Source: Opitutales bacterium
GTDB taxonomy: Bacteria; Verrucomicrobiota; Verrucomicrobiia; Opitutales; UBA2987
Reading direction: 5' to 3'
Length of the DNA: 64,000 nt
NCBI GenBank assembly: GCA_965226885.1
Contig: CBDDEL010000017.1
Coordinates: 32,001 to 96,000, forward strand
Position 1 is the stretch's first letter. Every line of letters starts with the position of its first letter. The position numbers were made by a program, and so were the translations under genes. Positions 31,212-63,690 of this stretch are shown piece by piece. Under the pieces are notes generated by a model. It was given only the letters and a program-made list of their open reading frames with translations, was not told the origin of the DNA and did no database searches.

Positions 31212-32560
31212 TGACGTGTACTGGATTTGTTGGACACGGGATTCTCTTATATTCATTGTTTATTGATTAGTGTGTCAGGCGGCTTGTTTTGGTAAAGGGT
31301 TTTGTTTTCTCGTTGCCCCCCATGGGGGGCAAATATTTTCCTCGAATTGGACTGGGCTTTGGTAACTCAGAGAGGAATGTTTGCGATATCGGTTGTAGAA
31401 GATTTCCACGTATTCGAAGACAGTTGATCGCAGTTCGCGCTCGTCGGCAAAGTGGCGGCCTCGAATCGTGCTGGTCTTGAAGCGGCCGTAGAACGATTCC
31501 ATGGCCGCGTTGTCGTAGCAGTTGCCTTGGGCGCTCATGCTCGGCTTCATGCCTAGTTCAGAGATCAGCCTCTGATAGTCGTCGCTGGCGTAGGGGCTGC
31601 CCCGATCGCTGTGATGAATAATCCCGGTGCGCAGTGTGCCGCGGGTCATGGCCGCGGCTTTGAGGGCCTTGCCAACCAGCTTCGCGTCGTTGTGGTTGGA
31701 AACGCTCCAGCCCAGCAGGCGTCGGCTGAACAGGTCCATCACCGTGGCCAAGTACATCCAACCGGCCAGGGTCCGTAGGTAGGTCGTGTCCGCCACCCAG
31801 ACCTCGTCGATATGGGTCGGCTGGCCATGCTTTTTAAGCACATTGGGGCTGTAACCATAGGGATGGTTACTGTTGGTTTTTAATGGCTTAAAGCGTTTAC
31901 TCTGGGTGCTTTTGATTCCCATTTCACGCATCAGACGCAGAGCCCGGTCACGGCCGCAATCGATGCCCTCATCATCCTTCAGATGGCGGTGCATTGGCCG
32001 ATGCCCATAAGCGGCCCTTGGCCTCTTTGTGTACCTTCAGGATCGCCCCCTTGATTCCCTCGTCCTCGATCCGCCGGGCCGAGGGCGCTCGGTGCCTCCA
32101 GCAGTAATAGCCACTGCGACAAATCCCCATCGCCGAGCATATTTCCTCGATCTTGAAGCGCCCCTCGTTGTCTTTGACAAACTGGTACTTCATTGTTCGT
32201 CCTTGGCAAAGTAGCCCACCGTTTTTTTTAGTATCTGGTTGATCCGCTCCGAGCGGCGCAGCTCTTTGCGAAGACGATCTATCTCGGCCGCCATCTCCTT
32301 CGGACTGCTCTGTCGCTTTGAGGTGGCTTCGCCCTGCTGATCGTCCAGATAGAGCCTCTTCCACCTATACAATTGGTTGGTGTTGACCCCAAGTTTGGTC
32401 GATACCTCGGTGGCTTGGTCGATACCTCGGTGGCGCTCAGACCATCGAGTATCATCAGTTGAACTGCCTCATTTTTGAACTCTATACTAAAGCGTCTTCT
32501 TCCCATGCTTCGATTCTCCATTTAGGAGAATCTCGTGTCCACTTTTTCCAGTGCACATCA
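31212..32560 (-). mobile_element. IS3-family element, copy 2 (1349 bp, both ORFs frameshifted)
   Basis: Near-identical to 10315-11642; 3-bp target duplication GCC; 20-bp duplication at 32395-32434 and +1 near 32009. Confidence 0.95.
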
Positions 32561-50379: not shown

Positions 50380-51381
50380 ATGAATTTGCGGAATGAAGGA
50401 AAAATTCTGGTTACGGGCGGGGCCGGTTTTATCGGGAGCGCATTGGTTTGGGCTCTCAATAAGCGGGGAATTGAGGACATTATTATTGCCGATTATTTGG
50501 GGAGCGATGAAAAATGGAAAAATCTGGTTCCTTTGCGCTTCGAACATTATCTGGAAGCAGACGAGTTGCTTGAGAACCTGAAAAGAAAAGAAAATTCTTT
50601 CTTGGGAGATTTGAGCACCGTTTTTCACCTTGGGGCCTGTTCCAGCACGACAGAAACGGACGCTTCCTATCTGGCGAATAACAATTACGAATATACCCGG
50701 TTTCTGGCTGAATGGGCGCTTTCCAGAGGAATCCGTTTTATTTATGCTTCCTCAGCCGCCACTTACGGTGATGGCGGCCAAGGTATGGATGACAAAGATA
50801 AGGACCTCGCCCGCCTGAGACCGCTCAATATGTATGGATATTCCAAACACATGTTCGACCTCTACGCTCAAAGGCACAATCTATTGGAGCAAATTGTAGG
50901 GCTTAAATATTTCAATGTCTTCGGTCCCAATGAAAACCATAAGGGAAATATGCGCAGTCTGGTCCACAAAGCTTTTGAACAAATTCGTGATTACGGGGCC
51001 GTTAAATTATTCAAAAGCTATCATCCCGACTACCCTGACGGCGAACAAAAGCGGGATTTTCTCTATGTCAAAGACACCGTGGAGATGACCCTTTTTCTGG
51101 CTGAAAATGAAAAAGCGTCCGGCCTCTACAACATCGGCAGCGGACAGGCGCACACCTGGATTGAATTGGTCGAACCGATTTTCCATGCCATGAATAAGCC
51201 GGTAAATATCGAATTTATCGACATGCCAGAGGCCATCCGGTCTCAATACCAATATTTCACGGAGGCCGATACCTCAAAACTTCGTCATAGCGGTTATGGA
51301 GATTCAGTCATGTCACTGGCGGAAGCCGTCACCGACTATGTGAAAAACTATCTCCTCGACCATAAAACCCTGGGCGCCTGA
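50380..51381 (+). CDS. hldD: ADP-L-glycero-D-manno-heptose 6-epimerase
   Basis: TGGAGFIGS, HLGACSSTTE, YASSAATYG, YGYSK, YQYFTEAD. Confidence 0.95.
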   Translation: MNLRNEGKILVTGGAGFIGSALVWALNKRGIEDIIIADYLGSDEKWKNLVPLRFEHYLEADELLENLKRKENSFLGDLSTVFHLGACSSTTETDASYLANNNYEYTRFLAEWALSRGIRFIYASSAATYGDGGQGMDDKDKDLARLRPLNMYGYSKHMFDLYAQRHNLLEQIVGLKYFNVFGPNENHKGNMRSLVHKAFEQIRDYGAVKLFKSYHPDYPDGEQKRDFLYVKDTVEMTLFLAENEKASGLYNIGSGQAHTWIELVEPIFHAMNKPVNIEFIDMPEAIRSQYQYFTEADTSKLRHSGYGDSVMSLAEAVTDYVKNYLLDHKTLGA

Positions 51382-51418
51382 GGGCCCCCCTTCCCTTTTA
51401 AACGCGAGGGATAAGGTA

Positions 51419-52096
51419 TTATTCGAGCGGGAAAAGTTCCAGAATCTCTTCCACTTTCCACGAATTGGGCCGCTCGTGGCTGGCCCTGATTGCGGTCACC
51501 TGCTCGGCGGATACCTGGTCGGAATTATTACCCCAGTCGGGATTGGTACGAACATAGGTGGCAATGGCGGCTATCTGCTCATCGTCCAACAAAGAGGAAA
51601 AAGGCGTCATAATGCTGTTATAGGCATTTCCGACAACTTCAATTTGGCCAGACATGCCGTTCAACATAATGGCCACCATGCGGTCCGGTTCCCCACGCAC
51701 CCAGCGCGAACCGACAAGCGGCGGAAAGGCTCCGGGTAGCCCCGTGCCGTCGGCTTGGTGGCAGGCGATGCAATTGCGTTTGTAAAGCTTTTCCCCATCA
51801 ATTGCCACTGGCTGCAAATCCCCGGAACCTACATCAAACGAGGGTGGCTTACCCTCGGGATCGAAAACAAAAGGATGGTAGCCGCCGGCGTATTTACTGA
51901 GGTATATGCTCCCGAAGACAAAGATGAATGTGAACAAAGCTGTCCCCAAAATAGGCATGGAAAGGACACCGTTGCCATTACTCTCGGATTTCGAGAATGT
52001 CCGGGCATGGGTTTCCAGAAGAGCGTCGTCCGGCATCCGGCTTTTTTCAGCCAGATTCATGGATGGGTCGGAATCGTTAGATTTTGAGTGGCTCAT
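51419..52096 (-). CDS. Membrane-anchored monoheme cytochrome c
   Basis: One TM helix, CIACH, FPPLVGS, axial Met. Confidence 0.9.
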   Translation of the reverse strand: MSHSKSNDSDPSMNLAEKSRMPDDALLETHARTFSKSESNGNGVLSMPILGTALFTFIFVFGSIYLSKYAGGYHPFVFDPEGKPPSFDVGSGDLQPVAIDGEKLYKRNCIACHQADGTGLPGAFPPLVGSRWVRGEPDRMVAIMLNGMSGQIEVVGNAYNSIMTPFSSLLDDEQIAAIATYVRTNPDWGNNSDQVSAEQVTAIRASHERPNSWKVEEILELFPLE

Positions 52097-52107
52097 TAAT
52101 GGATCGA

Positions 52108-52794
52108 TTAATTCTGCGGTTCTTCCTGTAAACGGGCTTCGGGCAGGCTGTAATCGAGTTTCAGGCTCTGCAAATAGGCAACCAGAGCCTTTGCCCGGCG
52201 GGTGGGCACAATTTCGTATCCTTCGGCGGGGCCAAAGCCCTCCTGAAATTCAATGGCGTTGGGCGAAGCTTCCCCATTTGAGGCGATTTTGCGTTTTTGG
52301 TATAAAAAAGCATAGGGAGGCATGTTGGAACCGGACTTTTCGGATTGCGGGTTATACAAATGGGCGTGTAGGCGGTTCACCGAGCCGCTGCGTTGGCCGA
52401 AGTCGGCCAAATCCGGCCCGTTGCGCGAAGATCCCAGCAACACCCTCTTTTGCTGTATGTAATCGCGGGGCACTGATTGGCGGTTTCCCCAGCCGCGCTC
52501 GAAATCGGTTCCGAAGCCTTTTCGGCGAACCTGCTGGGTGTGGCAATAGACGCAGCCCAGGCCAACGTATTGGGCTTTCCCCTGTTGGGCCAGACCGACG
52601 GATTCCTCGGGGTATCGAGGCTCGTCTTTTTGAGGCGTCTCGATTCTCGCGGTATTGGAAACCGGGTCGATGGCGTAATATTCCGACATGGGTTGAAGCT
52701 CGCCCAATTGCTTTTGGCCCTGCCAGAGAATTCCAGCCCAGGAAAGAGCCAGGGTGGCGAATAATCCGCAAAATATTAAAGGCAGGCTTTTCAT
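52108..52794 (-). CDS. cbb3-type oxidase subunit II (CcoO/FixO)-like cytochrome c
   Basis: CVYCHTQQVR, LGSSRNGPDL, HLYNP, SNMPPY. Confidence 0.85.
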   Translation of the reverse strand: MKSLPLIFCGLFATLALSWAGILWQGQKQLGELQPMSEYYAIDPVSNTARIETPQKDEPRYPEESVGLAQQGKAQYVGLGCVYCHTQQVRRKGFGTDFERGWGNRQSVPRDYIQQKRVLLGSSRNGPDLADFGQRSGSVNRLHAHLYNPQSEKSGSNMPPYAFLYQKRKIASNGEASPNAIEFQEGFGPAEGYEIVPTRRAKALVAYLQSLKLDYSLPEARLQEEPQN

Positions 52795-52804
52795 TCTATC
52801 TCAA

Positions 52805-54283
52805 TCATGAAGCGGCGGTTTCGGGAAGCAGGTTGTTGTCGGCCGTGAAGAAGGCTTTTTTACAAGAAAGGGCCGCCAGTGCAAACATCCAGAGAATGTT
52901 GGCCGCAAACGCCAGATGCCCAACGCCTATTAACAAGATCGATACCGTGCGGGCATGAAGCCAGGGCAGTGTATTGCGCACAATTTGCAGGAAATCCAAT
53001 TGAACCGGGTTTCCATAGCTATCCAGTGTGGCCAAATTCATCTGCGAGCCTTGAATCCAGCCGCCCACGTAGAGGGCAACGAGCATGAGGGTTATTCCGC
53101 CAGCGGCGCACCAAAAATGGCATTGGATCAACTTTGCCGAAGGCCAGGGGCAATTGAGAAGGCGTGGCATCATGAAATAAATCGCCCCGAACATGGTCAT
53201 GGTGAAAAAGGCATAAATCATATGATGGGTCTGCCCCTGCACCATGAGGGTGAATTGGGCAACTTCACTGACCGATCGCAGGGACATGGCGCAGCCGATC
53301 AGACTAGCCAAGGTGTAGGAAATCGTTCCGAAGACCACGAACCGCAAGGCGGGGCTGGCCGCAACCTGATTCCATCGGCCGGAAACGGTGAGGTGGTGGT
53401 TAACGGCGGCGATGGCGATGGGGAGAACCATAGCCATGGATGCCACGATCCCGACCGTGACCAGCCATGAGGGCACGGGCCCACCAGCCAGGTGGCGTAT
53501 TCCGCCCCACCCTACTATGAGGGCCAGGGACCAAAATCCGAGGGAAGCCAGGTAGTAACTGTGGATGGGCCGGCCCAGAATTTTGGGTATGAGGTAATAG
53601 GCGGCGCCCAGCCCGGCGGGAATCAGCCAGAGACCCAAAAGGTTGTGCATGTACCACCAATTGGCCATAGCCTGGACCACTCCCCGGGCCGGAGCATAGA
53701 CGAGAAAGATTTGCGCCGTTACATAAATCCAGGGAAACCAGAACAGGGCGCCCAGCACATACAACTGGGAAATAAAAACGGGTCCGGGCCGGCCATAGAA
53801 GACTACGAGTGTTCCCCATATTCCCATGATAATGCTGGAAAAGGCCAGCAGAGGGACCGCGTAGGCGGGCATTTCGAGCCATTCAATCGAGGTCATATCC
53901 CCGATAATAATCCCGCCGATCCCGATGGTGACGGCCACGTTCCAGAACATGGCCCCGATCAAAAGCATCCCGGCTTGGGGAACAGGCCGCCGGCAAAGTC
54001 GGGCCAAAATCCATAATCCAACCCCAAAAAAGGCGTTGCCGCCCCAGCCATAAATCATGGAGTTGAGGTAGGCCGCCCAGACACGCCCGTAGGTGAGCCA
54101 TTCGCAACCGGCCAAGAATCCGGGATGGGTCGATTTTACGGAGGCCATGAGAGCGAAAGTTGTGGCCGTCAAGAGCCAGAGAATGGCTGAAAGCAAGAGT
54201 AGCAATACGGGCCATCTCAACGAGCGGTCGATCTCGTTCAACCTGGATTGTGCCGTCACTGGCTCTGTGGATGGTGTGTTCAC
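52805..54283 (-). CDS. cbb3-type oxidase subunit I (CcoN)-like membrane protein with degenerate metal ligands
   Basis: About 12 TM; WLTYGR, EWLEMP, WWYMHN, YYLIPK...PIHSY match CcoN; several His ligands replaced. Confidence 0.82.
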   Translation of the reverse strand: MNTPSTEPVTAQSRLNEIDRSLRWPVLLLLLSAILWLLTATTFALMASVKSTHPGFLAGCEWLTYGRVWAAYLNSMIYGWGGNAFFGVGLWILARLCRRPVPQAGMLLIGAMFWNVAVTIGIGGIIIGDMTSIEWLEMPAYAVPLLAFSSIIMGIWGTLVVFYGRPGPVFISQLYVLGALFWFPWIYVTAQIFLVYAPARGVVQAMANWWYMHNLLGLWLIPAGLGAAYYLIPKILGRPIHSYYLASLGFWSLALIVGWGGIRHLAGGPVPSWLVTVGIVASMAMVLPIAIAAVNHHLTVSGRWNQVAASPALRFVVFGTISYTLASLIGCAMSLRSVSEVAQFTLMVQGQTHHMIYAFFTMTMFGAIYFMMPRLLNCPWPSAKLIQCHFWCAAGGITLMLVALYVGGWIQGSQMNLATLDSYGNPVQLDFLQIVRNTLPWLHARTVSILLIGVGHLAFAANILWMFALAALSCKKAFFTADNNLLPETAAS

Positions 54284-54315
54284 GAAATTGCTTGAATTTA
54301 AAAATGAATGGGCGA

Positions 54316-54636
54316 TTACGGGCTGCCGTCTACAGGTGGTTCCTTGGACAGATCTTTTAGGGTCAGTTCCATGGCGCGCTTGATGGGGATGCGAACAATC
54401 CCGGCGGACTGATCAATCCACCCATAGGTGGTGCGGATTTCTTCGTGCCAACTGCGGACTTCCATCAAAGTGTTGTCTCTCTTTTGCGAGACCCGATCGC
54501 CGACCGGCGCGGGGCGGTTGACGGCAACCATAATGATGACCACCAGCAAAAAGGAGAGAATCAGCCCGAAAATGCTGAGGGCGGATAGGCTCAAGGAGAG
54601 CCCGCCCGGTTCCGAAGTTGGAGGGTGTTCACTCAT
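54316..54636 (-). CDS. Alternative complex III small subunit (ActG-like)
   Basis: One TM helix; YGWID...VRIPIKRAMEL. Confidence 0.75.
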   Translation of the reverse strand: MSEHPPTSEPGGLSLSLSALSIFGLILSFLLVVIIMVAVNRPAPVGDRVSQKRDNTLMEVRSWHEEIRTTYGWIDQSAGIVRIPIKRAMELTLKDLSKEPPVDGSP

Positions 54637-55927
54637 GGGCGTTGATGGATTCGAGGATACGCGGATCCCGGATGGGAATGGGTTTCACCTTGCGGGAACT
54701 GATGATAAAAGACCAAACACAGATGCTCCCCACACCGAGCCAGGTTAAAAAGTCAACCCAGTTAGGAATGAAGGGCCTGACGACGAAACCGAGAATATTT
54801 TCATCGCTGGGAATCTGGCCCGGCAAAATATTCCAATACATGTCGAGGCCGTGAAAAGCGAGTATCCAGATGGCGATAAAAAGTACCCGGAGGCCGAATT
54901 TATTGTGGTACCACAACAGGTAGATGAAGGGGAAAAGGAAGTGGGCGAAAACCAATCCCATACTGACCCACCACCAACTGTTTTTGGTACCGTCGAAATT
55001 CATTTCCCGAATGTTGTACCAAAAAGTCTCCTCGGGGATATTGGTGTTATAAATGAGGAAATACTGGCAAAAGCTGATGTAGGCCCAGAATACCGTGAAA
55101 GCCAGCATGAGGCAGGCCAACAAGTAGGAATGGTAGCGGTTGTAGATGCCTTTGAGGTAGCCGCGGGTTCCCAGTATCCAGCAGATTACCATGGTCCCGG
55201 CCAGGCCGGCTCTCATGCTCTCGGCAAAAAACCAAACTCCGTACATGGTCGAGAACCAGTGGTACTCGAGGGACTTGAACCAATCGACGGCTGCGAAGGT
55301 GGCGCAGAAGGCGCACAGGTAAATGCCGACGGCGGAAACATTGTGGGCCAGGCGCGCCCATTTGGGATCGCCATCCTTTTCCATAGAAAAAGAACAACGC
55401 CGCAATATACCTGCCAACCCGATCCAGGCGGCAAAATAAAAAATGGTCCGGAAGGTGAAAAAGCCCACATTGAGAAAGCTGGATTTTTTTTGAAGTAAAA
55501 CATCGCCGCTGACCGGTTCGCCACTGGGAAGTAAATTACCCGGATCCATCCAGACCCAGGGCACGGCATTGTTTTCGGGGTGGAAAAAACTCAGTGCCGC
55601 CACCGGTAGAAAGATTAAGGCAATCCATTTGAAACCGGACAGGGCGTGCTCGATCTGCCGCCTGACGATGATCGACCAGCCGGCGTCGAAAACGTATAAT
55701 ATCATGAGCAGGAAGAGCATTCCGACGCCCATGGAAAGCCAGTAGGAGAGCCCGATCATCCAGCCCAGGAAGGGACGTGAATCACCGGTTCGCCAACCCA
55801 TCATCAAGAGGATGAAGGCACCGGCGAGGCTGACTAAACCGAGGATCAAGGCTTTTGTCGCCAGATCGTTATTTTTACCGGAGGAAGCCACCGCTTCCAG
55901 GGTTGGGTTGGCCGCTTCAGCGCTCAT
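54629..55927 (-). CDS. actF: Alternative complex III subunit ActF
   Basis: Polytopic; AGWS..RR..E, DW.KSLEYHWFSTMYG, FWAYISFCQY, NIPEET. Confidence 0.88.
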   Translation of the reverse strand: MSAEAANPTLEAVASSGKNNDLATKALILGLVSLAGAFILLMMGWRTGDSRPFLGWMIGLSYWLSMGVGMLFLLMILYVFDAGWSIIVRRQIEHALSGFKWIALIFLPVAALSFFHPENNAVPWVWMDPGNLLPSGEPVSGDVLLQKKSSFLNVGFFTFRTIFYFAAWIGLAGILRRCSFSMEKDGDPKWARLAHNVSAVGIYLCAFCATFAAVDWFKSLEYHWFSTMYGVWFFAESMRAGLAGTMVICWILGTRGYLKGIYNRYHSYLLACLMLAFTVFWAYISFCQYFLIYNTNIPEETFWYNIREMNFDGTKNSWWWVSMGLVFAHFLFPFIYLLWYHNKFGLRVLFIAIWILAFHGLDMYWNILPGQIPSDENILGFVVRPFIPNWVDFLTWLGVGSICVWSFIISSRKVKPIPIRDPRILESINAHE

Positions 55928-56532
55928 AGTCCTAAATCCCCCCTATGTTCGGCCGGCACATCGGCGAGTCTCGAATTTTGCGCGCGCTGCAATGCTCTCA
56001 AGTAGGCGATAACAGCCCAACGCTCGGCGGGCCTCAGCTTTGCCCCATAAGGTCCCATATTATTTTTGCCCTTGGTTATGGTATTAAAAATCTCCCCTTC
56101 GGGCATGTCGCGAAATCGCTGGTTGTGGTAGGTCGGGGTGGCCACCATGCCGTATTTTTTGGTGATGCCGTTGCCATCTCCGCTGGCACCGTGGCATACG
56201 GCGCAAAAAATAGTAAATTTTTCCTGCCCCAGTTTCATTAAACCGGCATCGATGGACAGGGGGAATCCTCGTCCGAAATCCTCGTCGATCTTTCCGGTGA
56301 CGTAGTATTCGTTTTCGTGAAAGGAGCTGAATGAGACTGTTCCGGGCACCGCAGGGCGGTCTGCGCGCCCGTCGGCAAACATATCGCTCTCCGCCTGGGG
56401 TTTGTATTTTTCCTGCCGGTCCATGTCTGGAAACACTTCCAGTGGAGGCTTGCTCGAACGCGATCCCCTAAACCCTGTAAAGGAGAGGGTCGTGACGACC
56501 AGAAATATCAAGAAGGCAATAAAGTAACGCAT
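55924..56532 (-). CDS. actE: Alternative complex III monoheme cytochrome ActE
   Basis: DMDRQEKYKPQ, CAVCHG, ERWAVIAYLRALQ. Confidence 0.88.
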   Translation of the reverse strand: MRYFIAFLIFLVVTTLSFTGFRGSRSSKPPLEVFPDMDRQEKYKPQAESDMFADGRADRPAVPGTVSFSSFHENEYYVTGKIDEDFGRGFPLSIDAGLMKLGQEKFTIFCAVCHGASGDGNGITKKYGMVATPTYHNQRFRDMPEGEIFNTITKGKNNMGPYGAKLRPAERWAVIAYLRALQRAQNSRLADVPAEHRGDLGL

Positions 56533-56537
56533 ATTAA

Positions 56538-57068
56538 TTATTCCTTCAATTCTACTACTTCGAGGCTCTTCAGGCCTTCCAGAAATTTGCGTGTTTCCTC
56601 CAGGTCGAATTTTTCATCCTGGGCTTCGAGGAGGATGAGAAACTGGTCGTCGGTAATGCCGGGCCATTTTTTAAAGTCCATCACCGGGTGGTGGTGGCGA
56701 GGGAGCCGGTTGGTGATAAACATCCCGAAGAAGGCCCCGAAGGAGGCCAGCAGAATAGTCATTTCATAAGCCACAGGAAAGGGAAAAATGGGGCTAAATA
56801 AGGGTTTCCCCCCGACCACCAGGGGAAAGTCGAACTCACCCATATACCAGGCGATAAACATTCCGGTAATAAACCCGGTGACGCCTCCTATCAAAGAAAA
56901 TAGAGGCACTTTGGAGCGTTCCAGGCCCATGGCCCCTTCCAGTCCGTGCACGGGAAATGGAGAATAGACATCCCAATGGCGGAAGCCGGCCTCGCAAATT
57001 TCCTCCGCCGCCTTGTAGAGGTTGTGGGTGTTGCCGAAAGTGGCGATCAATCCGAAAGTTTTGCTCAT
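56538..57068 (-). CDS. actD: Alternative complex III subunit ActD (DUF3341)
   Basis: [23 protein letters not shown]. Confidence 0.9.
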
Positions 57069-58498
57069 TGAGTGAGTTCCGGTTCGTGATGATTCCCGTA
57101 GGGATCGGCCTGGGGGGTCACGTGTTTAATTTCGGCAATGGCCATGAGGGGCAGAAAGCGGATGAAGAGCAGGAATAAAAAGGAGAAGAAACCAAAAGTC
57201 CCGATGAAGGTAAAAATGTCCACCACGGTGGGGGAGAAGTAATCCCAGTTGGCCGGCATATATTCATTGGCCAAGGTGGTCACGACGATGACAAAGCGCT
57301 CGAACCACATGCCGATATTGACAAAAATGGAAACGATCCAGACCAGCGCCGTGTTTTCCCGAATCCAGCGGAACCAGAATAGTTGAGGCGTGATGACATT
57401 GCATGAAATCATAATCAGGTAGGCCCACCAATAGGGACCGAAGGCGCGGTTGATGAAGGCGAATCCTTCATAGGGGTTGGCCCCGTACCAAGAGATGAAA
57501 AACTCCATGGCGTAGCCGTAGCCGACCATGCTGCCGGTGGCCAAGGTGACTTTACACATGCAGTCGATATGGTATTGCGTAACGAGGTCGTGCAAACCGT
57601 AAATCGCCCTCAAGGGTAGTATAAGCGTCAAAACCATTCCGAAACCGGAAAAAATGGCGCCAGCGACAAAGTAAGGGGGAAATATGGTGGTATGCCAGCC
57701 CGGCAGGTTGGCCACCGCGAAGTCGAAGGAGATGATGGTGTGGACCGAAAGTACCAAGGGAGTGCTCAATCCCGCCAGTAATAGATATGCCATCTCGTAA
57801 TTGGTCCAGTGGCGGCAGGACCCGCGCCAACCCATGGCTAGAATACCGTAAAAGTATTTGCGCCAGGTCTTTGTGGCCCGGTCCCGCAAAGTGGCCAAAT
57901 CGGGTACCATGCCCATATACCAGAATAATATCGAAACCGTAAAATAGGTTGAGACGGCAAAAACGTCCCACTCCAGTGGGCTGCGGAAGTTAGGCCAGAT
58001 AGATTGCGAATTGGGCAGGGGAAAGAGCCACCAGGAAAACCAGATTCGACCCATGTGGAAGAGAGGGAAGATGCCCGCGCACATAACCGCGAAAATCGTC
58101 ATGGCTTCAGCTGTGCGGTTGATGGAGGTGCGCCACTTCTGTTTCAACAGGCAAAGAATGGCCGAGATAAGGGTGCCGGCATGGCCGATGCCGATCCAAA
58201 AGACGAAATTAACAATGGCCCAACCCCAATAAACCGGCCCTCCCAAACCCCATACGCCGACCCCCGTGGCAACCAAGTATAATAGCCCAAGGCCCGTAAA
58301 TGAAGCCACGAATCCAGCCACCAAAAAGCAAACCCACCACCAATTGGGCGTTTTTTCCTCCACGATCCGGCAGACTTTTTCCGTGATCCAATGGAAATCG
58401 CGGTTGTTTTCGACCAGCGGCCGACGCGGCATATGGGTTTGCCTGACCTCGTCCAGAACAACCGGCCTGACAATGGGAATTTCTTCTGTATATGCCAT
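57065..58498 (-). CDS. actC: Alternative complex III quinol-binding subunit ActC (NrfD/PsrC family)
   Basis: [41 protein letters not shown]. Confidence 0.93.
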
Positions 58499-58525
58499 AT
58501 TCTTCTACGTTCCAGACGTTAAAAT

Positions 58526-61500
58526 TTAATGATGACTGCCGTTTCCATGTTCCGTGTCCTCGCCGTGTGCGGCACCGTGCGGGTTGAGTTTTTCATACTC
58601 CATACGGCTCAGGGGCATAGACTCATAATCCGGCATGAGCGGGTTGGGGTTGCGCAGCCGGGCCAGGTAAGTCGTCCGCGGGCGGGTGTTCAAATAGCCT
58701 AACATGCCGTAATTCAAATCGGAATTTTTGATTTTCGAGACCTCCGAATCGGCATCGGCGACATCGCCGAAAACAATGGCCCCGGTGGGACATACTTGCT
58801 GGCAGGCAGTCTTGATGGCGCCTTCCCGGACTTTTACGTCGTCGGAATCCCGCGCCGCCACCTTGGCTTTGATCACCTCGACATCAATGCGCTGCTGGCA
58901 GTAGGTGCATTTCTCCATCACCCCGCGCATGCGAATGGTGACTTCGGGATTTTTTTGCAGGCTCTTGATTTCGGGTTTTCCGGCCGGCCCCAGCGGTCCT
59001 TCGTAAAAATGGTCGATTTCGCGCTTGTTCCAGTCGAAAAAGTTGAAACGGCGAACTTTGTAGGGGCAATTGTTGGCGCAATAGCGGGTACCCACGCAAC
59101 GGTTGTAGGCCATTACGTTGAGGCCCTGAGAGTCATGCACGGTGGCATTGACCGGGCAGACCTGTTCGCATGGCGCCATCTCGCAATGCATGCAGGGTAT
59201 CGGGGCCACGGAAACCTGCGGATTGTCCGGCACATGCTGTTTATTTACCTCGACATCGCCGCTGGAATAATAGCGGTCGAGGCGAATCCAGTGCATTTCC
59301 CGCCCGCGGGCCACCTGGTCCTGGCCAACGATGGGGATATTGTTCTCGCTCTGGCAGGCGACCACGCAGGCGCTGCACCCGGTGCAGACATTGAGGTCGA
59401 TGGACATGCCCCATTGCTGCGCGCCGCCGAATTTGGGAGTAAAATAAAGAGAGTTGCCGCGGGGTTGGGTTACGACCTGCTCTTGCAGCGATTTATCTTT
59501 GGCGCTGCCCAGAATGGGGGGCGAATGGGATTCCATGCCCAGTTTTTCCACAAAATGGGGTTCCTTTTGGAAATCCCCCACATTTGCTTCCCTGATGATG
59601 GCCCGCCCTTCCATGGACCAGTGTTCCTGGGTATTGGCCAGATTATGAGTAGTCCCGGCCAGTTCCAGCCGAGCGCCCCGGATGATTCCGCCCGATTGCG
59701 AGGAAAATAACGGATAGGCGCTGAAACCGACGTTGTCCCCTACCCGTCCGGATTTTGTGCGCCCATAGCCGGTTGTCAGGGCGACGGTATAATCGGCCAG
59801 GCCGGGCTGGACATTGATGGGGCCTGTTATGGTCGTTCCGTTGATGGAAAGCGTGCCCACCGGGGCGACTTGCCGGCCCATTTTAAAATCGTTAAACCTT
59901 TTGGCTGAAACTTGCGCCAGTTTGAGAAACCGGGAAACCGGGGAGCGCGGGGTGTTGGGCTCCCAGCCCAAATCCCGGGCCAGTTGCGGACTGATCGAAA
60001 TGACATTATCCCAGGTGATCTTGGTCATGGGATCGGGACATTCCTGCAGCCAGCCATTGTTGCTGTAACGCCCATCCAGCACTTTGGGGTCGGCCGTAAT
60101 GCGAACTTCCAGGTCGTCTGCGGAAAAAGGCCTGGAGGGCGGGATCATCCTGGCAACATCTTTTTGCAAAGCGCCCACATCCAGGGCAACCTTTTTCCGG
60201 GCATAGCCTGAATTTTCGAGTAGACCATCGCTCAGGAATCGTTCAAAAGCTCGATCATTATCGAGTTTGCCAGTGATGGCGGCAATCGTTTCGCGCACCA
60301 AAATGTAGGGATCGGTTTCCTCCAAACCGGCCAGGCGAGCCAGTATGGCAATTTCCTGAAAACCGTCGAAGAGGGGAAGGATCATCGGCTGCACCGGCAG
60401 TATAACGCCGTCCCAGGCGCGCCCGTCACCCCAGGATTCCAGATAATGGGCGGCGGCGATATGCCCTTGTGAAAGTGCGGAAGTCTCATCCTCATAATAA
60501 CCGAAGCGGATGACTTCATCCACCGCTCCTTGCAAATCGGCCCAATGAAGGTCGCCGGGGGCATTGTAGGCTGGATTTCCGCCGAGGATAAAAAGAGTTT
60601 CCACCCGGCCGGCTTGAATAGCCTCGGCCAGGTCTTGAATGGTCACGCCCTCCTTTTCCGGAATTTCCAGGTAATCCACAGTTTTCCCGTTGGCGGATAA
60701 AAGATCGTTGGCAAAATAGGCCAGTTGATGAACTTCCACCGGCTGGTCCTCCCCTGCCACGATGACGGCTTCCCCCCGGTGTTCGAGGAGATCGGCCACA
60801 CATTCCCTGATCCAGGCGGAATCCACTTCCAGACCGGCCGCTTTTCGTCGCAGAAGAGCCGCCAAGGATGCATTTTGGTCCATCTTTTCGAGCAATTCGG
60901 CAACTGTCAGAGCGGCCAGAGCAGGAATATGACTGGCCGGTAAACGGAGGCGGTGATCGGCCATGGTTCCTGTGATGCTGTAATGGCTCTCGGCCATATA
61001 AAGGCGGCTCATTTTTTCGGCTGCGGCAGGCTCGTGTACCCTTCGACGGTCTGAAAAATCCCGAGCTTGTTGCAAAAGGCCCGGCCCGCTATTTAAAAAG
61101 TCCGCATCAAGGGATAATATTCGACGCGCATTCTTGAAATTGTAACGGGGCCGCAGTCTTTTCCCCAAAATCCGGGCCAAAGCCGACTCGGCATTATTCT
61201 GCTCGGTCGCATCGTATTCCGCCCATATGCTCCGCGGAAATCTTTCCCGAAGGGCTTTGACGAGGCGTTCACGGGTTGGTGAGGTGCTTCCCTCGGCCAG
61301 AATGGCCAGTCCCTGCCCTTGTGTGGGGCGGTATTTTTCACCGATCGCATCAAGCCATGCTTCTACCTCTGCGCGGTTCAGTTCCCGCGATCTCTTTTTG
61401 CTCGTTGCCGACCTGTCCGGATCATACAGATCGAGAATAGAGGCCTGGGCCTGAAGATTGGTCGATCCGCCATAGGGACTGTAGGCAGGATTGCCCTCAA

Positions 61501-61879
61501 TCTTGGTGGGGCGATTCTGATGCGTCTTGACCACCAATGGGATGTTGTCCTTGGCTGACGGCAGGGAGGTGGAAAAATAAACCGGAACCCCCGGAACTCC
61601 ATTTTCAGGCTGTTTGGAGTAGGGTAAAATATGCTGTTCGGGCCTGCGGCAACCTGCCATGCCGGCCCCGGCGAAAGCAAAGGAGGCAGCCATGATCTTG
61701 AGGAAATGCCTACGGTTGAAGCCCTCTATTTCGGAGGCCCCGGCCGGGAATTCGCGTTCCACCCAGTCGCGGAATTCAGCCGATTCCGCCAGCTCGTCGA
61801 GGCTTTTCCAATAATGAGGACCACTGCGGTGTTTTTCCGCGGTTTCCGATGGCTGTTTTTGTTGGGTTGGGAGAATCAT
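58526..61879 (-). CDS. actB: Alternative complex III subunit ActB (molybdopterin-oxidoreductase-like plus Fe-S domain)
   Basis: YWKSLDEL, Tat motif NRRHFLK, CTGCSACVVAC, CMHCEMAPCEQVC, CVGTRYCANNC, KCTYC; start 61879 (ATGA overlap with actA). Confidence 0.92.
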   Translation of the reverse strand: MILPTQQKQPSETAEKHRSGPHYWKSLDELAESAEFRDWVEREFPAGASEIEGFNRRHFLKIMAASFAFAGAGMAGCRRPEQHILPYSKQPENGVPGVPVYFSTSLPSAKDNIPLVVKTHQNRPTKIEGNPAYSPYGGSTNLQAQASILDLYDPDRSATSKKRSRELNRAEVEAWLDAIGEKYRPTQGQGLAILAEGSTSPTRERLVKALRERFPRSIWAEYDATEQNNAESALARILGKRLRPRYNFKNARRILSLDADFLNSGPGLLQQARDFSDRRRVHEPAAAEKMSRLYMAESHYSITGTMADHRLRLPASHIPALAALTVAELLEKMDQNASLAALLRRKAAGLEVDSAWIRECVADLLEHRGEAVIVAGEDQPVEVHQLAYFANDLLSANGKTVDYLEIPEKEGVTIQDLAEAIQAGRVETLFILGGNPAYNAPGDLHWADLQGAVDEVIRFGYYEDETSALSQGHIAAAHYLESWGDGRAWDGVILPVQPMILPLFDGFQEIAILARLAGLEETDPYILVRETIAAITGKLDNDRAFERFLSDGLLENSGYARKKVALDVGALQKDVARMIPPSRPFSADDLEVRITADPKVLDGRYSNNGWLQECPDPMTKITWDNVISISPQLARDLGWEPNTPRSPVSRFLKLAQVSAKRFNDFKMGRQVAPVGTLSINGTTITGPINVQPGLADYTVALTTGYGRTKSGRVGDNVGFSAYPLFSSQSGGIIRGARLELAGTTHNLANTQEHWSMEGRAIIREANVGDFQKEPHFVEKLGMESHSPPILGSAKDKSLQEQVVTQPRGNSLYFTPKFGGAQQWGMSIDLNVCTGCSACVVACQSENNIPIVGQDQVARGREMHWIRLDRYYSSGDVEVNKQHVPDNPQVSVAPIPCMHCEMAPCEQVCPVNATVHDSQGLNVMAYNRCVGTRYCANNCPYKVRRFNFFDWNKREIDHFYEGPLGPAGKPEIKSLQKNPEVTIRMRGVMEKCTYCQQRIDVEVIKAKVAARDSDDVKVREGAIKTACQQVCPTGAIVFGDVADADSEVSKIKNSDLNYGMLGYLNTRPRTTYLARLRNPNPLMPDYESMPLSRMEYEKLNPHGAAHGEDTEHGNGSHH

Positions 61880-62529
61880 CGATGGCATCTGGAACAGCTC
61901 AAAGGTGGGTCGATTTTCCATGCTTCGACAATTTTTTGACCCATTTCGAGTTGTTCCCGGTGGTTGGGGGCTTTCCAGTCCAAATCGTAAACTTTGTCGA
62001 GGGGGCGTACTTTTTCTTCGGGATTGCGGTGGCAGGTAAGACAAAAATCCATGCTCAGTGATTCTGCGTGCTCGACTACTTTCATTTTATTGATCTGCCC
62101 GTGGCACTCCACACAGCTGACACCCCGATTGACGTGCGCTGAGTGGTCAAAATAAACGTAATCCGGCAATTTGTGTACGCGAATCCAGGGAACGGGTTCC
62201 CCCGATTGGTAGCTTTCGCGGATGGGCGCCAGCTTGGGGCTTTCCGGCAGAATCTGGTTGTGACAATTCATGCAAGTGGCCGCATCCGGCACATTGGCGT
62301 GCTCCGAGCGGTCCACATAGGTATGACAATAGCGGCAATCCAGGCCAAGTTGACCGACATGCAGGCTATGGTCATAAGCCACTGGTTGGGTAGGTTGATA
62401 GCCGACGCGGGTGTATTTGGGCGAAAAAAAGTAGGTCACTCCGGCGGTTCCGACTCCGCTCAAAAGAAACAAGGCGATGATCACATTGATCGGTACCTGA
62501 TTGGACCATTTAGGGAAAATATTCGCCAT
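61876..62529 (-). CDS. actA: Alternative complex III pentaheme cytochrome ActA
   Basis: Five CxxCH motifs (CRYCH, CMNCH, CVECH, CLTCH, CSRCH); N-terminal TM. Confidence 0.93.
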   Translation of the reverse strand: MANIFPKWSNQVPINVIIALFLLSGVGTAGVTYFFSPKYTRVGYQPTQPVAYDHSLHVGQLGLDCRYCHTYVDRSEHANVPDAATCMNCHNQILPESPKLAPIRESYQSGEPVPWIRVHKLPDYVYFDHSAHVNRGVSCVECHGQINKMKVVEHAESLSMDFCLTCHRNPEEKVRPLDKVYDLDWKAPNHREQLEMGQKIVEAWKIDPPLSCSRCHR

Positions 62530-62583
62530 TACTCAAAAAAGAATTCTAACCGTGCCTCGTTTTTACGATGTTTCAACAGCTTC

Positions 62584-62772
62584 TTAGGCAAAGGGATTTT
62601 TACGGGCTACAGCCCGTGGGTCCCTCTTTACGGCTAGCGGTTTGTCAACCGAAGGACTGATTTTTGGGTCTCTCCACCCGGAAAGACCCGCTTTGGTCAG
62701 GCCGAATAATCCGGCGCCCAGTCCCACCATCCATTTAAGAAAGTTTTTTCGCTCTATACTGACAATCGACAT
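62584..62772 (-). CDS. Small protein with Tat-like N-terminus preceding actA
   Basis: ERKNFLK plus hydrophobic stretch; co-oriented, 54 bp upstream of actA. Confidence 0.5.
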   Translation of the reverse strand: MSIVSIERKNFLKWMVGLGAGLFGLTKAGLSGWRDPKISPSVDKPLAVKRDPRAVARKNPFA

Positions 62773-63078
62773 CCAGAGTTATTTAGGGGTTTCAATTCAG
62801 TTCAGTTCAAAAATGAACCTGTCACAGGAAATACAAAAGGAGAAATAATGTTCGCAATTCAACTATTGAGGCCCGGGATCAGGTAAATATTTTCAACCAT
62901 GCCCAGCCCCAGCCAATAGAAGAATTCAGTTCAATTCTTCAACATATTTTTGTAATTTATCGAATTAATTTAAAATTTAATAACTATTATTAGAAGAATT
63001 TTGCATTAAAAAGGATAGTGAACCCGAAATTGGAAAACCAATTCTCCGCTGTCAACCCCGGAAGAAATGATTTTTGGG

Positions 63079-63228
63079 TGACGTGTACTGGATTTGTTGG
63101 ACACGGGATTCTCTTATATTCATTGTTTATTGAACTGCCTCATTTTTGAACTCTATACTGCGTCTTCTTCCCATGCTTCGATTCTCCATTTAGGAGAATC
63201 TCGTGTCCACTTTTTCCAGTGCACATCA
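63079..63228. mobile_element. 150-bp internally deleted derivative of the IS3 element
   Basis: Both IS ends retained, joined at a TTGA microhomology. Confidence 0.88.
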
Positions 63229-63477
63229 GTACTAATTGACAGCAGATACCAAAATCATTTGCCAAATCACCTTGAAAGCAATAAATTGGATCGAATTATT
63301 AGAAAGTAACTATTTTCAACGATTATGAATGTTCATATGGGAAATCTCGGATTTAATTAATATAAATCAAATCACTGATTGCCGGATGCCAGACGGCGAC
63401 CGGGATTTTACGCTCTATTCCTTGCATATAAAGCGGCCTACGGACTTTAAGCTTTTCCCGAAAAATTCTTCCCCACT

Positions 63478-63690
63478 ATGGCAGGCAATCTCGTAAAACG
63501 AATCAAGTGGATAGTCTTGGGCCTAGTACTGGTCCTGATTTTAATACTGATTTTGCAAAATACCGAGAGCGTGGCTTTGAGATTTTTTCTCTGGAATCTT
63601 GAAATGCCTAAGCTGGCATTGGTAATTCTTTGCCTCCTGGCCGGTATGGCCGCCGGATTCATGTTAGCCAAGCAGCCGTGGGACCATTAA
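63478..63690 (+). CDS. LapA-family small membrane protein
   Basis: Two TM helices with the QNTESVALRFFLW loop. Confidence 0.75.
   Translation: MAGNLVKRIKWIVLGLVLVLILILILQNTESVALRFFLWNLEMPKLALVILCLLAGMAAGFMLAKQPWDH

Follow-up and report, generated by a model that had tools for sequence, protein, structure and literature searches.

Does the large membrane subunit encoded near the end of an alternative complex III (ACIII) operon in an Opitutales bacterium still reduce oxygen, and if it does not, why is its gene kept? The question is raised by three minus-strand genes, for a CcoN-like subunit, a CcoO-like subunit, and a cytochrome c, which cover positions 51419-54283 of the window (the whole stretch of DNA that was analyzed, 64,000 nucleotides [nt] long, positions 32,001 to 96,000 of contig CBDDEL010000017.1 in assembly GCA_965226885.1). 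They are the end of a ten-gene minus-strand ACIII operon that runs from ActA to the cytochrome c. Subunit I of C-family heme-copper oxidoreductases (HCOs) has six invariant histidines, two for heme b, one for heme b3, and three for CuB, plus a cross-linked tyrosine in helix VII. A preliminary description, made from the DNA alone, had claimed that several of these residues are missing from the CcoN-like protein. Our analysis leads to a reading to which we give a probability of about 0.6: this protein is a catalytically dead descendant of CcoN that is kept by selection as a non-redox membrane subunit anchoring two heme-c subunits beside ACIII.

The CcoN-like protein aligned over its full length to CcoN chains of solved cbb3 oxidases (phmmer, E = 2e-39 for 9g6b_A and 1.7e-36 for 3mk7_A). 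We used P. stutzeri CcoN (3MK7) as the numbering reference and checked the codon positions. We take the cofactor roles of the P. stutzeri sites to be heme b for His60 and His347, heme b3 for His345, CuB for His207, His257, and His258, and the cross-link for Tyr251. The sites read as follows.

54068..54070, minus strand: His60 replaced by Tyr72 (RPLHTN over WAAYLN), at the low-spin heme b ligand site.
53645..53647, minus strand: His207 kept as His213 (WWYGHN over WWYMHN), at the CuB site; histidine in all five species of the genus.
53513..53515, minus strand: Tyr251 of helix VII replaced by Val257, at the cross-link tyrosine site.
53492..53497, minus strand: His257 replaced by Arg263 and His258 kept as His264 (WAGPHH over WGGIRH), at the CuB pair site.
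53225..53233, minus strand: His345 replaced by Gln351 and His347 kept as His353 (GHVH over GQTH), at the heme b3 and heme b sites.

As controls, seven canonical fused CcoNO proteins of the same order were added to the alignment, and every one of them reads HHYHHHH at the seven sites. The flanking conserved motifs were unshifted in the alignment of 30 relatives. Therefore, the substitutions are not an alignment artifact. The motif changes listed in the preliminary description (WAAYLN, WGGIRH, the tyrosine loss, and GQTH, with WWYxHN kept) all held when the protein was aligned to P. stutzeri CcoN. So did its claim of a full-length open reading frame (ORF), here 492 amino acids (aa), followed by CcoO-like and cytochrome c genes with intact CxxCH motifs (CVYCH and CIACH). 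The six histidines were not recovered by alignment, and the orthologues in the genus are also without them.

The protein scored 189 bits on Pfam COX1 (PF00115; cut-off, 34.8) and 163.2 bits on the NCBIfam ccoN equivalog TIGR00780 (cut-off, 583.15), a shortfall that may be a trait of the whole ACIII-linked group. The best Foldseek match of an AlphaFold2 model (101-row alignment; pLDDT, 94; pTM, 0.93) was 3mk7_A (TM scores, 0.86/0.91; root mean square deviation, 2.2 Å), and cbb3 CcoN chains ranked ahead of NorB and of A- and B-family subunits. As modeled, the protein retains the 12-helix cbb3 fold. Its ESM Atlas matches were to COX1-family clusters only, mostly from Verrucomicrobiota. With CcoN (FixN) of the cbb3 oxidases (P. 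stutzeri 3MK7/5DJQ and P. aeruginosa 8SMR), it shares this fold, homology over the full length, and CcoO-like and further cytochrome c partners. However, it differs in that three of the six histidines and the tyrosine are replaced, in its 163 bits against 583, in that no ccoS or ccoG was found, and in that the gene is in the tail of an ACIII operon.

Nitric oxide reductases (NORs) of the cNOR and qNOR types have both hemes ligated and an FeB site of three histidines and a glutamate, and three of the same six histidine positions are missing from the CcoN-like protein. Structures of cNOR were the next-best fold matches of the model (3o0r_B; TM scores, 0.77/0.84). According to the part of PMC11214002 available to us, cNOR and qNOR, NOD, gNOR, and the other NOR families are also members of the HCO superfamily that are without the active-site tyrosine and do not reduce O2. 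That part also has the NOR families keeping both hemes and a three- or four-residue metal site, with gNOR alone replacing one active-site histidine, whereas ligands of both heme b and heme b3 are lost here.

To look at the wider distribution, we used a set of 41 genomes, this one and 40 relatives. The CcoN module gene is present in 31 of them, once as a fragment. The other 30 could be aligned as ACIII-linked CcoN genes, of which 12 are ligand intact and 18 are deficient. Insertion of heme b, heme b3, and CuB into CcoN depends on CcoS, whose distribution follows this division. Pfam FixS/CcoS (PF03597) matched in 9 of the 41 genomes. Eight of these belong to the 12 whose ACIII-linked CcoN is intact, the other has just the CcoN fragment, and the 18 genomes with a deficient CcoN gave no match. 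Eight of the nine matches lie 70 to 620 nt upstream of CcoN on the same strand, and the ninth is at a contig end. A hidden Markov model (HMM) built from such ORFs matched within 900 nt upstream of CcoN in all 90 intact loci examined but in only 4 of 25 deficient ones. Three of these four are only partly deficient (HHSHHHH, HHSARHH, and HHQRHHH). When eight of the upstream ORFs were tested, five passed the Pfam FixS cut-off. Neither Pfam nor the HMM found ccoS in this genome, which is 96% complete (best E value, 5.2 over 91,103 ORFs). It also had no match to ccoG (TIGR02745), which in the relatives was found solely beside the second, fused CcoNO oxidase that some of them have.

Opitutales and other Verrucomicrobiota have ligand-intact ACIII-linked cbb3 oxidases, for example at loci named Coraliomargarita, Cerasicoccus, Thalassobacterium, and Geminisphaera colitermitum TAV2. 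Their CcoN proteins are 50 to 57% identical to the CcoN-like protein, and the operon order is the same, ActABCDEF(G)-CcoN-CcoO-cytochrome c. However, they keep HHYHHHH and have ccoS between ActG and CcoN. In ligand-intact Opitutales operons, we saw this small ccoS/fixS gene between the ActG-like gene and ccoN at L010:1251-1439 (plus strand), L087:9681-9944, L113:9685-9900, L066:9619-9834, and L139:9711-9968. A ccoS gene in this place could be a practical marker; in the loci examined, it splits live from dead ACIII-linked modules almost perfectly.

The gene would descend from the CcoN of an ACIII-linked cbb3 oxidase, with the 12-helix fold preserved. Its losses are an axial ligand of the low-spin heme b, the proximal heme b3 ligand, a single CuB ligand out of three, and the cross-linked tyrosine. 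Given this ligand loss and a genome in which no CcoS was found, the protein most likely has no heme-copper center and carries out no O2 reduction. We regard it as very probable that it is not an O2 reductase.

Could it still be a redox enzyme of another kind? Five species of the genus, with overall identities of 70 to 90%, bear on this point. At the seven sites, they read YHVRHQH (this genome), YHVRHQH, YHTRHQH, YHTRHHH, and GHVSNNQ. All five are deficient; counted from most to fewest, they keep 4, 3, 3, 3, and 1 of the six histidines. In the order of the reads, position 257 is V, V, T, T, and V; position 351 is Q, Q, Q, H, and N; and position 353 is H, H, H, H, and Q. Position 264 is asparagine in one species. 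An enzyme with altered ligation might, for example, hold a b heme on His353 and Tyr72 and a metal on His213 and His264 and either catalyze some non-O2 chemistry or act as a one-heme conduit. Consistent with this, His213 is present in five of five species, and this copy keeps three of the six histidines along with many neighboring residues that intact forms conserve. Its share of the 182 positions with at least 90% conservation in intact forms is 78.6% (median, 53.8% for deficient and 98.9% for intact sequences). Only one deficient sequence keeps more of the 182 positions, so this copy is among the least decayed. Precedents come from the NOR families, for which the available part of PMC11214002 reports changed heme ligation (His/Met and His/Lys) and a changed active-site histidine. 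However, the sister species that reads GHVSNNQ is still 70% identical and has the same dN/dS with one histidine left, the genus is variable at positions 264, 351, and 353, a glutamine stands at the site of the catalytic heme's proximal ligand, and CcoS was not found in the genome. An altered redox enzyme is therefore improbable in our judgment.

Beyond the genus, but within its family, the seven sites are FQSFHTQ, FHSSHYY, and FQSSDYY in three genomes from a sister genus. Among the nearest 120 homologues in a protein collection, 111 read HHYHHHH and 9 read otherwise, a minority that takes in the four closest (90, 84, 72, and 70% identity). We also examined the 150 best representatives at 50% clustering. 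Of the 132 that span all seven sites, 4 are intact, 65 have no histidine, 44 have one, and 16 have two, but representatives at 50% identity overcount the fast-evolving deficient forms (128 of the 132). A pattern scan of species genomes returned 80 named loci from Puniceicoccaceae, Coraliomargaritaceae, Opitutaceae, and other Verrucomicrobiota, 73 intact and 7 deficient; this ratio is not a frequency, because the scan patterns (from a 14-row alignment) favor intact forms. The relatives range from fully intact to fully ligand-less, and this copy is only half decayed, with three of six histidines.

The fully ligand-less ACIII-linked CcoN proteins of relatives resemble this one in operon position, in their intact heme-c partners, in that ccoS was not found beside them, and in similar selection (dN/dS of 0.18, one sister-genus pair). 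They also share with it the derived residues Tyr65, Ala246, and Gln343, but, unlike them, this copy keeps three of the six histidines. These residues emerged from a comparison of conserved positions in 199 intact and 144 deficient sequences (the latter with three or fewer histidines). About 48 conserved positions are shared by the two groups, mostly glycine, proline, tryptophan, and aromatic residues. Some 75 positions with at least 90% conservation among intact sequences drop to under 50% among deficient ones, including all seven ligand sites and their neighbors. The states specific to deficient forms are Phe65 to Tyr, Ser246 to Ala, and His343 to Gln, and all three are found in this gene. 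Close relatives of the Verrucomicrobiota ACIII-linked CcoN also occur on contigs binned to other phyla, L137 in a metagenome-assembled genome (MAG) labeled Thermoanaerobaculia and L140 in one labeled Alcaligenaceae. L140 has a complete ACIII operon, and the placement of the two could be a binning error or gene transfer.

If the protein does not reduce O2, is its gene still under selection? We calculated pairwise dN/dS by the Nei-Gojobori method (NG86), leaving out ActB (implausible dN above 2), and compared dN of CcoN with dN of ActF.

This genus, 10 pairs, CcoN deficient: dN/dS 0.13-0.18; dN(CcoN)/dN(ActF) 1.8-4.6, about 2 in 7 of the 10 pairs.
Sister genus, one pair with measurable dS, CcoN deficient: dN/dS 0.18; dN(CcoN)/dN(ActF) 2.2.
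Genus g34, 3 pairs, CcoN intact: dN/dS 0.044-0.050; dN(CcoN)/dN(ActF) 0.3-0.47.
Genus g14, 6 pairs, CcoN intact: dN/dS 0.041-0.094; dN(CcoN)/dN(ActF) 0.6-0.98.
Genus g14, 4 pairs with the divergent species G044, CcoN intact: dN/dS 0.12-0.14.

The CcoN-like gene is clearly under purifying selection, although constraint on it is about threefold weaker than in most pairs of intact orthologues. Deficient CcoN evolves faster than its ACIII neighbors, whereas intact CcoN evolves slower than its own. The other genes within this genus had dN/dS values of 0.023-0.036 (ActC), 0.04-0.10 (ActF), 0.06-0.21 (CcoO-like), and 0.11-0.21 (cytochrome c).

These values also bear on the idea of a decaying relic, en route to a pseudogene, that has no function of its own and is kept solely by its location in an essential operon. 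The threefold relaxation relative to most intact pairs fits a relic, and so do the drift of ligand positions within the genus and the long branches of deficient forms. However, dN/dS values of 0.13 to 0.18 are far below 1, and no internal stop interrupts the reading frame in any of the five species or in any of the 30 near-full-length ACIII-linked genes aligned. Also, the 48 or so positions that are conserved across both groups are hard to reconcile with a relic, and deficient forms persist at the same operon position down to about 30% identity. We consider a relic very improbable, and the reading that we prefer remains a CcoN descendant kept for a non-redox role.

What might that role be? The heme-c partners point to one. 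Compared with solved CcoO chains, the CcoO-like subunit keeps both CxxCH and the methionine of MP.Y. In the relatives' loci, all 30 CcoO-like genes have CxxCH, as do 28 of the 30 cytochrome c genes, the remaining two being outside the fetched stretch. The module is also strictly tied to ACIII. ActD and the CcoN module are both present in 30 of the 41 genomes and both missing from 10, and the last genome has CcoN on a 3.5-kb contig only. No ACIII without a CcoN module, live or dead, was found among the 41 genomes searched. ActF lies upstream of CcoN in 73 of the 80 named loci, and five of the seven exceptions have less than 1 kb of upstream sequence. The order ActA-F, ActG-like, CcoN, CcoO, cytochrome c is identical in every longer locus examined, intact or deficient. 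A complex prediction with ActF (residues 20-432), the ActG-like protein, and the CcoN-like protein (residues 11-480), each with an alignment, scored 0.00 against a mark of 0.32; it was made without control runs and is no evidence either way.

Scaffolding, electron relay, and ion translocation had all been proposed for this protein in the preliminary description. The first two fit the kept heme motifs and the strict co-occurrence with ACIII, and we lean slightly toward a combined scaffold and relay role. For ion translocation, nothing was found. Such a module would be redox independent and conformationally coupled to quinol oxidation by ACIII, by analogy with the antiporter-like subunits of complex I. 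In its favor, the gene encodes a large polytopic membrane protein and is kept beside an enzyme whose proton translocation is debated (PMC8498564, in the part available). Some charged residues (Asp19, Arg67, Arg95, Glu137, Arg164, and His389) are conserved in intact and deficient forms. However, they are conserved in intact enzymes too and therefore mark no new function. Furthermore, the equivalent of P. stutzeri Ser240, which we take to line the cbb3 proton channel, is serine in 99% of intact forms but alanine in 89% of deficient ones, including this gene. With no positive evidence for it in our analysis, an ion-translocating module seems quite improbable.

The preliminary description had called for a search for a true oxidase elsewhere in the genome. 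This genome (5.48 Mb) contains one further HCO, an aa3 operon on another contig, in the order diheme cytochrome c, COX2, COX1, COX3, COX4, COX3. Its COX1 shows all the canonical histidine motifs and the HPEVY tyrosine. Cytochrome bd and a bc1-type cytochrome b were not found in this genome, and aa3 is, per this evidence, the only heme-copper oxygen reductase found for this organism. Among the relatives, all 18 genomes with a deficient CcoN have another HCO (at least 412 bits), whereas an intact ACIII-linked CcoN is the sole HCO found in 4 of the 12 genomes that have one. The earlier suggestion of a retained subunit that does not reduce oxygen is supported by the genus-wide ligand loss, the dN/dS of 0.13-0.18, the failure to find ccoS, and the presence of aa3 elsewhere.

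Three minor observations concern the A-type oxidases. An insertion sequence-type transposase gene (rve integrase core plus HTH_21) lies at L003:13936-14799, on contig 16 of this genome, about 2 kb downstream of the aa3 operon. A relative whose ACIII carries a dead CcoN has another ActD (G029:C71:26200-31788) roughly 4 kb away from an A-type COX1, which suggests an additional ACIII operon of the ACIII-caa3 kind. In another (G017:C3:191441-192826), an A-type COX1 match has one in-frame TAG stop.

Under the preferred reading, the dead CcoN would hold the CcoO-like subunit and the monoheme cytochrome c on or beside ACIII, and electrons would leave ACIII via c-type hemes to the aa3 oxidase. A more elaborate scheme, which we offer only tentatively, is that the Opitutales ACIII recruited a whole cbb3 oxidase. 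After ccoS and the ligands were lost, the empty CcoN shell might have survived as an indispensable structural part of a supercomplex of ACIII, CcoO, and cytochrome c, which would link quinol oxidation to the separate aa3 oxidase; this genus would be at a half-way stage.

Several points weigh against a dead, selectively retained CcoN. His213, His264, and His353 remain, and Tyr72 could in principle ligate heme. The counts across the 41 genomes are not independent because the genomes are kin. The ccoS HMM was scored on loci that had supplied its own training sequences, and Pfam misses ccoS in 4 of the 12 intact genomes. The relaxation of selection is a tendency without clean separation, because the range of 0.13-0.18 overlaps the 0.12-0.14 of four intact pairs that involve one divergent species, and the ratios are rough because dS is above 1 in most pairs. 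The RNA found for 51419-55927, with three metatranscriptomic runs compared, is a single 193-nt contig from one RNA library, identical to 53699-53891, and it may be DNA carry-over.

How often were the ligands lost? A quick tree grouped the 18 deficient rows as a single clade (SH-aLRT, 99) that is nested within the intact ACIII-linked forms. A more careful tree, with the seven ligand columns removed and 13 rows added, needs at least three origins of ligand loss: a Chthoniobacter-labeled locus without only the tyrosine, two Opitutaceae loci, and a deep set. Therefore, ligand loss is recurrent. The careful tree gives no resolved branching of the deep set, which includes this genus, and a single clade of 20 was not rejected by the approximately unbiased test (P = 0.283). 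Going by these trees, this genus may share its ligand loss with the fully ligand-less forms or may have lost its ligands separately. The other origins are represented by partly deficient ACIII-type CcoN genes in two Opitutaceae MAG loci (L097, HHQRHHH; L129, HHSARHH) and in the Chthoniobacter-labeled MAG locus (L139, HHSHHHH), the last without ActB-F within 10 kb upstream. The placement of all three among intact relatives suggests recent, independent starts of the same decay.

That ACIII genes lie next to those of a C-type oxidase in Opitutaceae and verrucomicrobial methanotrophs has been published (PMC8498564, in the part available, citing Refojo et al. 2010). New HCO families, including tyrosine-less ones and gNOR with its single replaced histidine, are described in PMC11214002, the available part of which contains no ligand-less C-family form. 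We found no description of a ligand-deficient ACIII-linked CcoN in full-text literature searches, which covered sources other than Refojo et al. 2010 and the supplements of PMC11214002, or in the available parts of PMC8498564, PMC5492636, PMC11214002, PMC8407424, and PMC13274419. The expectation that such genes are common in Verrucomicrobia and annotated as cbb3 oxidase was supported; sources name these homologues "cbb3-type cytochrome c oxidase subunit I." Surveys based on names would count them as high-affinity oxidases and infer a microaerobic lifestyle. If the more elaborate scheme above is true, calls of a "high-affinity cbb3 oxidase" are wrong in Verrucomicrobiota genomes with ligand-deficient forms, and a genus with one to four of six histidines is a natural series in which a respiratory enzyme turns into a pseudo-enzyme. 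It seems that the catalytic core of a respiratory enzyme has been kept within another complex in a non-catalytic role, and the residual histidines, which differ between species, show the decay in progress in this genus. The reading also bears on how electrons leave ACIII and on what ACIII assembly needs.

The window carries the full ACIII subunit set in one operon, ActABCDEF(G), with ActF assigned by position and synteny and ActG by a weak match (E = 0.042). The operon is laid out as follows.

61876..62529, minus strand: ActA, the pentaheme cytochrome c subunit of ACIII; five CxxCH, multiheme Pfam families, and a QrcA-like NCBIfam match.
58526..62044, minus strand: ActB, the fused molybdopterin-like and 4Fe-4S subunit of ACIII; Fer4 domains, QrcC/QrcB-like matches, and TIGR04519 at residues 76-116.
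57065..58498, minus strand: ActC, the NrfD-like quinol-interacting membrane subunit; PF03916 NrfD, 79 bits.
56538..57068, minus strand: ActD; PF11821 ActD, 204 bits, the sole ActD match in the genome.
55924..56532, minus strand: ActE, a monoheme cytochrome c; one CAVCH and cytochrome c Pfam families.
54629..55927, minus strand: ActF-like membrane subunit, without a Pfam match; position and synteny with ACIII operons in all relatives examined.
54316..54636, minus strand: ActG-like small single-helix protein, 106 aa; match to the ActG chain 8k9e_G, with the motif V.IPI.RAM.L in common, and syntenic in relatives.
54284..54315, minus strand: 32-nt gap between the ActG-like and CcoN-like genes, the place of ccoS/fixS in ligand-intact operons.
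52805..54283, minus strand: CcoN-like subunit, with three of six histidine ligands and the cross-link tyrosine replaced.
52108..52794, minus strand: CcoO-like monoheme subunit, 228 aa; PF02433 FixO, 64 bits, with CVYCH.
51419..52096, minus strand: membrane-anchored monoheme cytochrome c, CcoP-like with one heme domain, 225 aa; PF00034 and PF13442, with CIACH; the final gene of the operon.

The CcoP-like cytochrome c scored 36.7 bits on the ccoP model, under the cut-off of 180. From the ActG-like gene to the cytochrome c gene, the intergenic spacing is 32, 10, and 11 nt, the ActF-like and ActG-like genes overlap by 8 nt, and the ORF beyond the end of the operon (50380-51381) is on the opposite strand. 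A promoter scan of 51000-63500 gave 13 promoter-like sites against 9.7 ± 3.0 expected, and a terminator scan of the same interval gave 26 terminator-like sites, many of them inside genes, against 15.9 ± 4.0 expected. As listed, ActB (an ORF of 1172 aa with a TTG start) shares 169 nt with the end of ActA (61876-62044). The twin-arginine translocation (TAT)-variant domain begins near residue 76, and the true ActB start is therefore probably further downstream.

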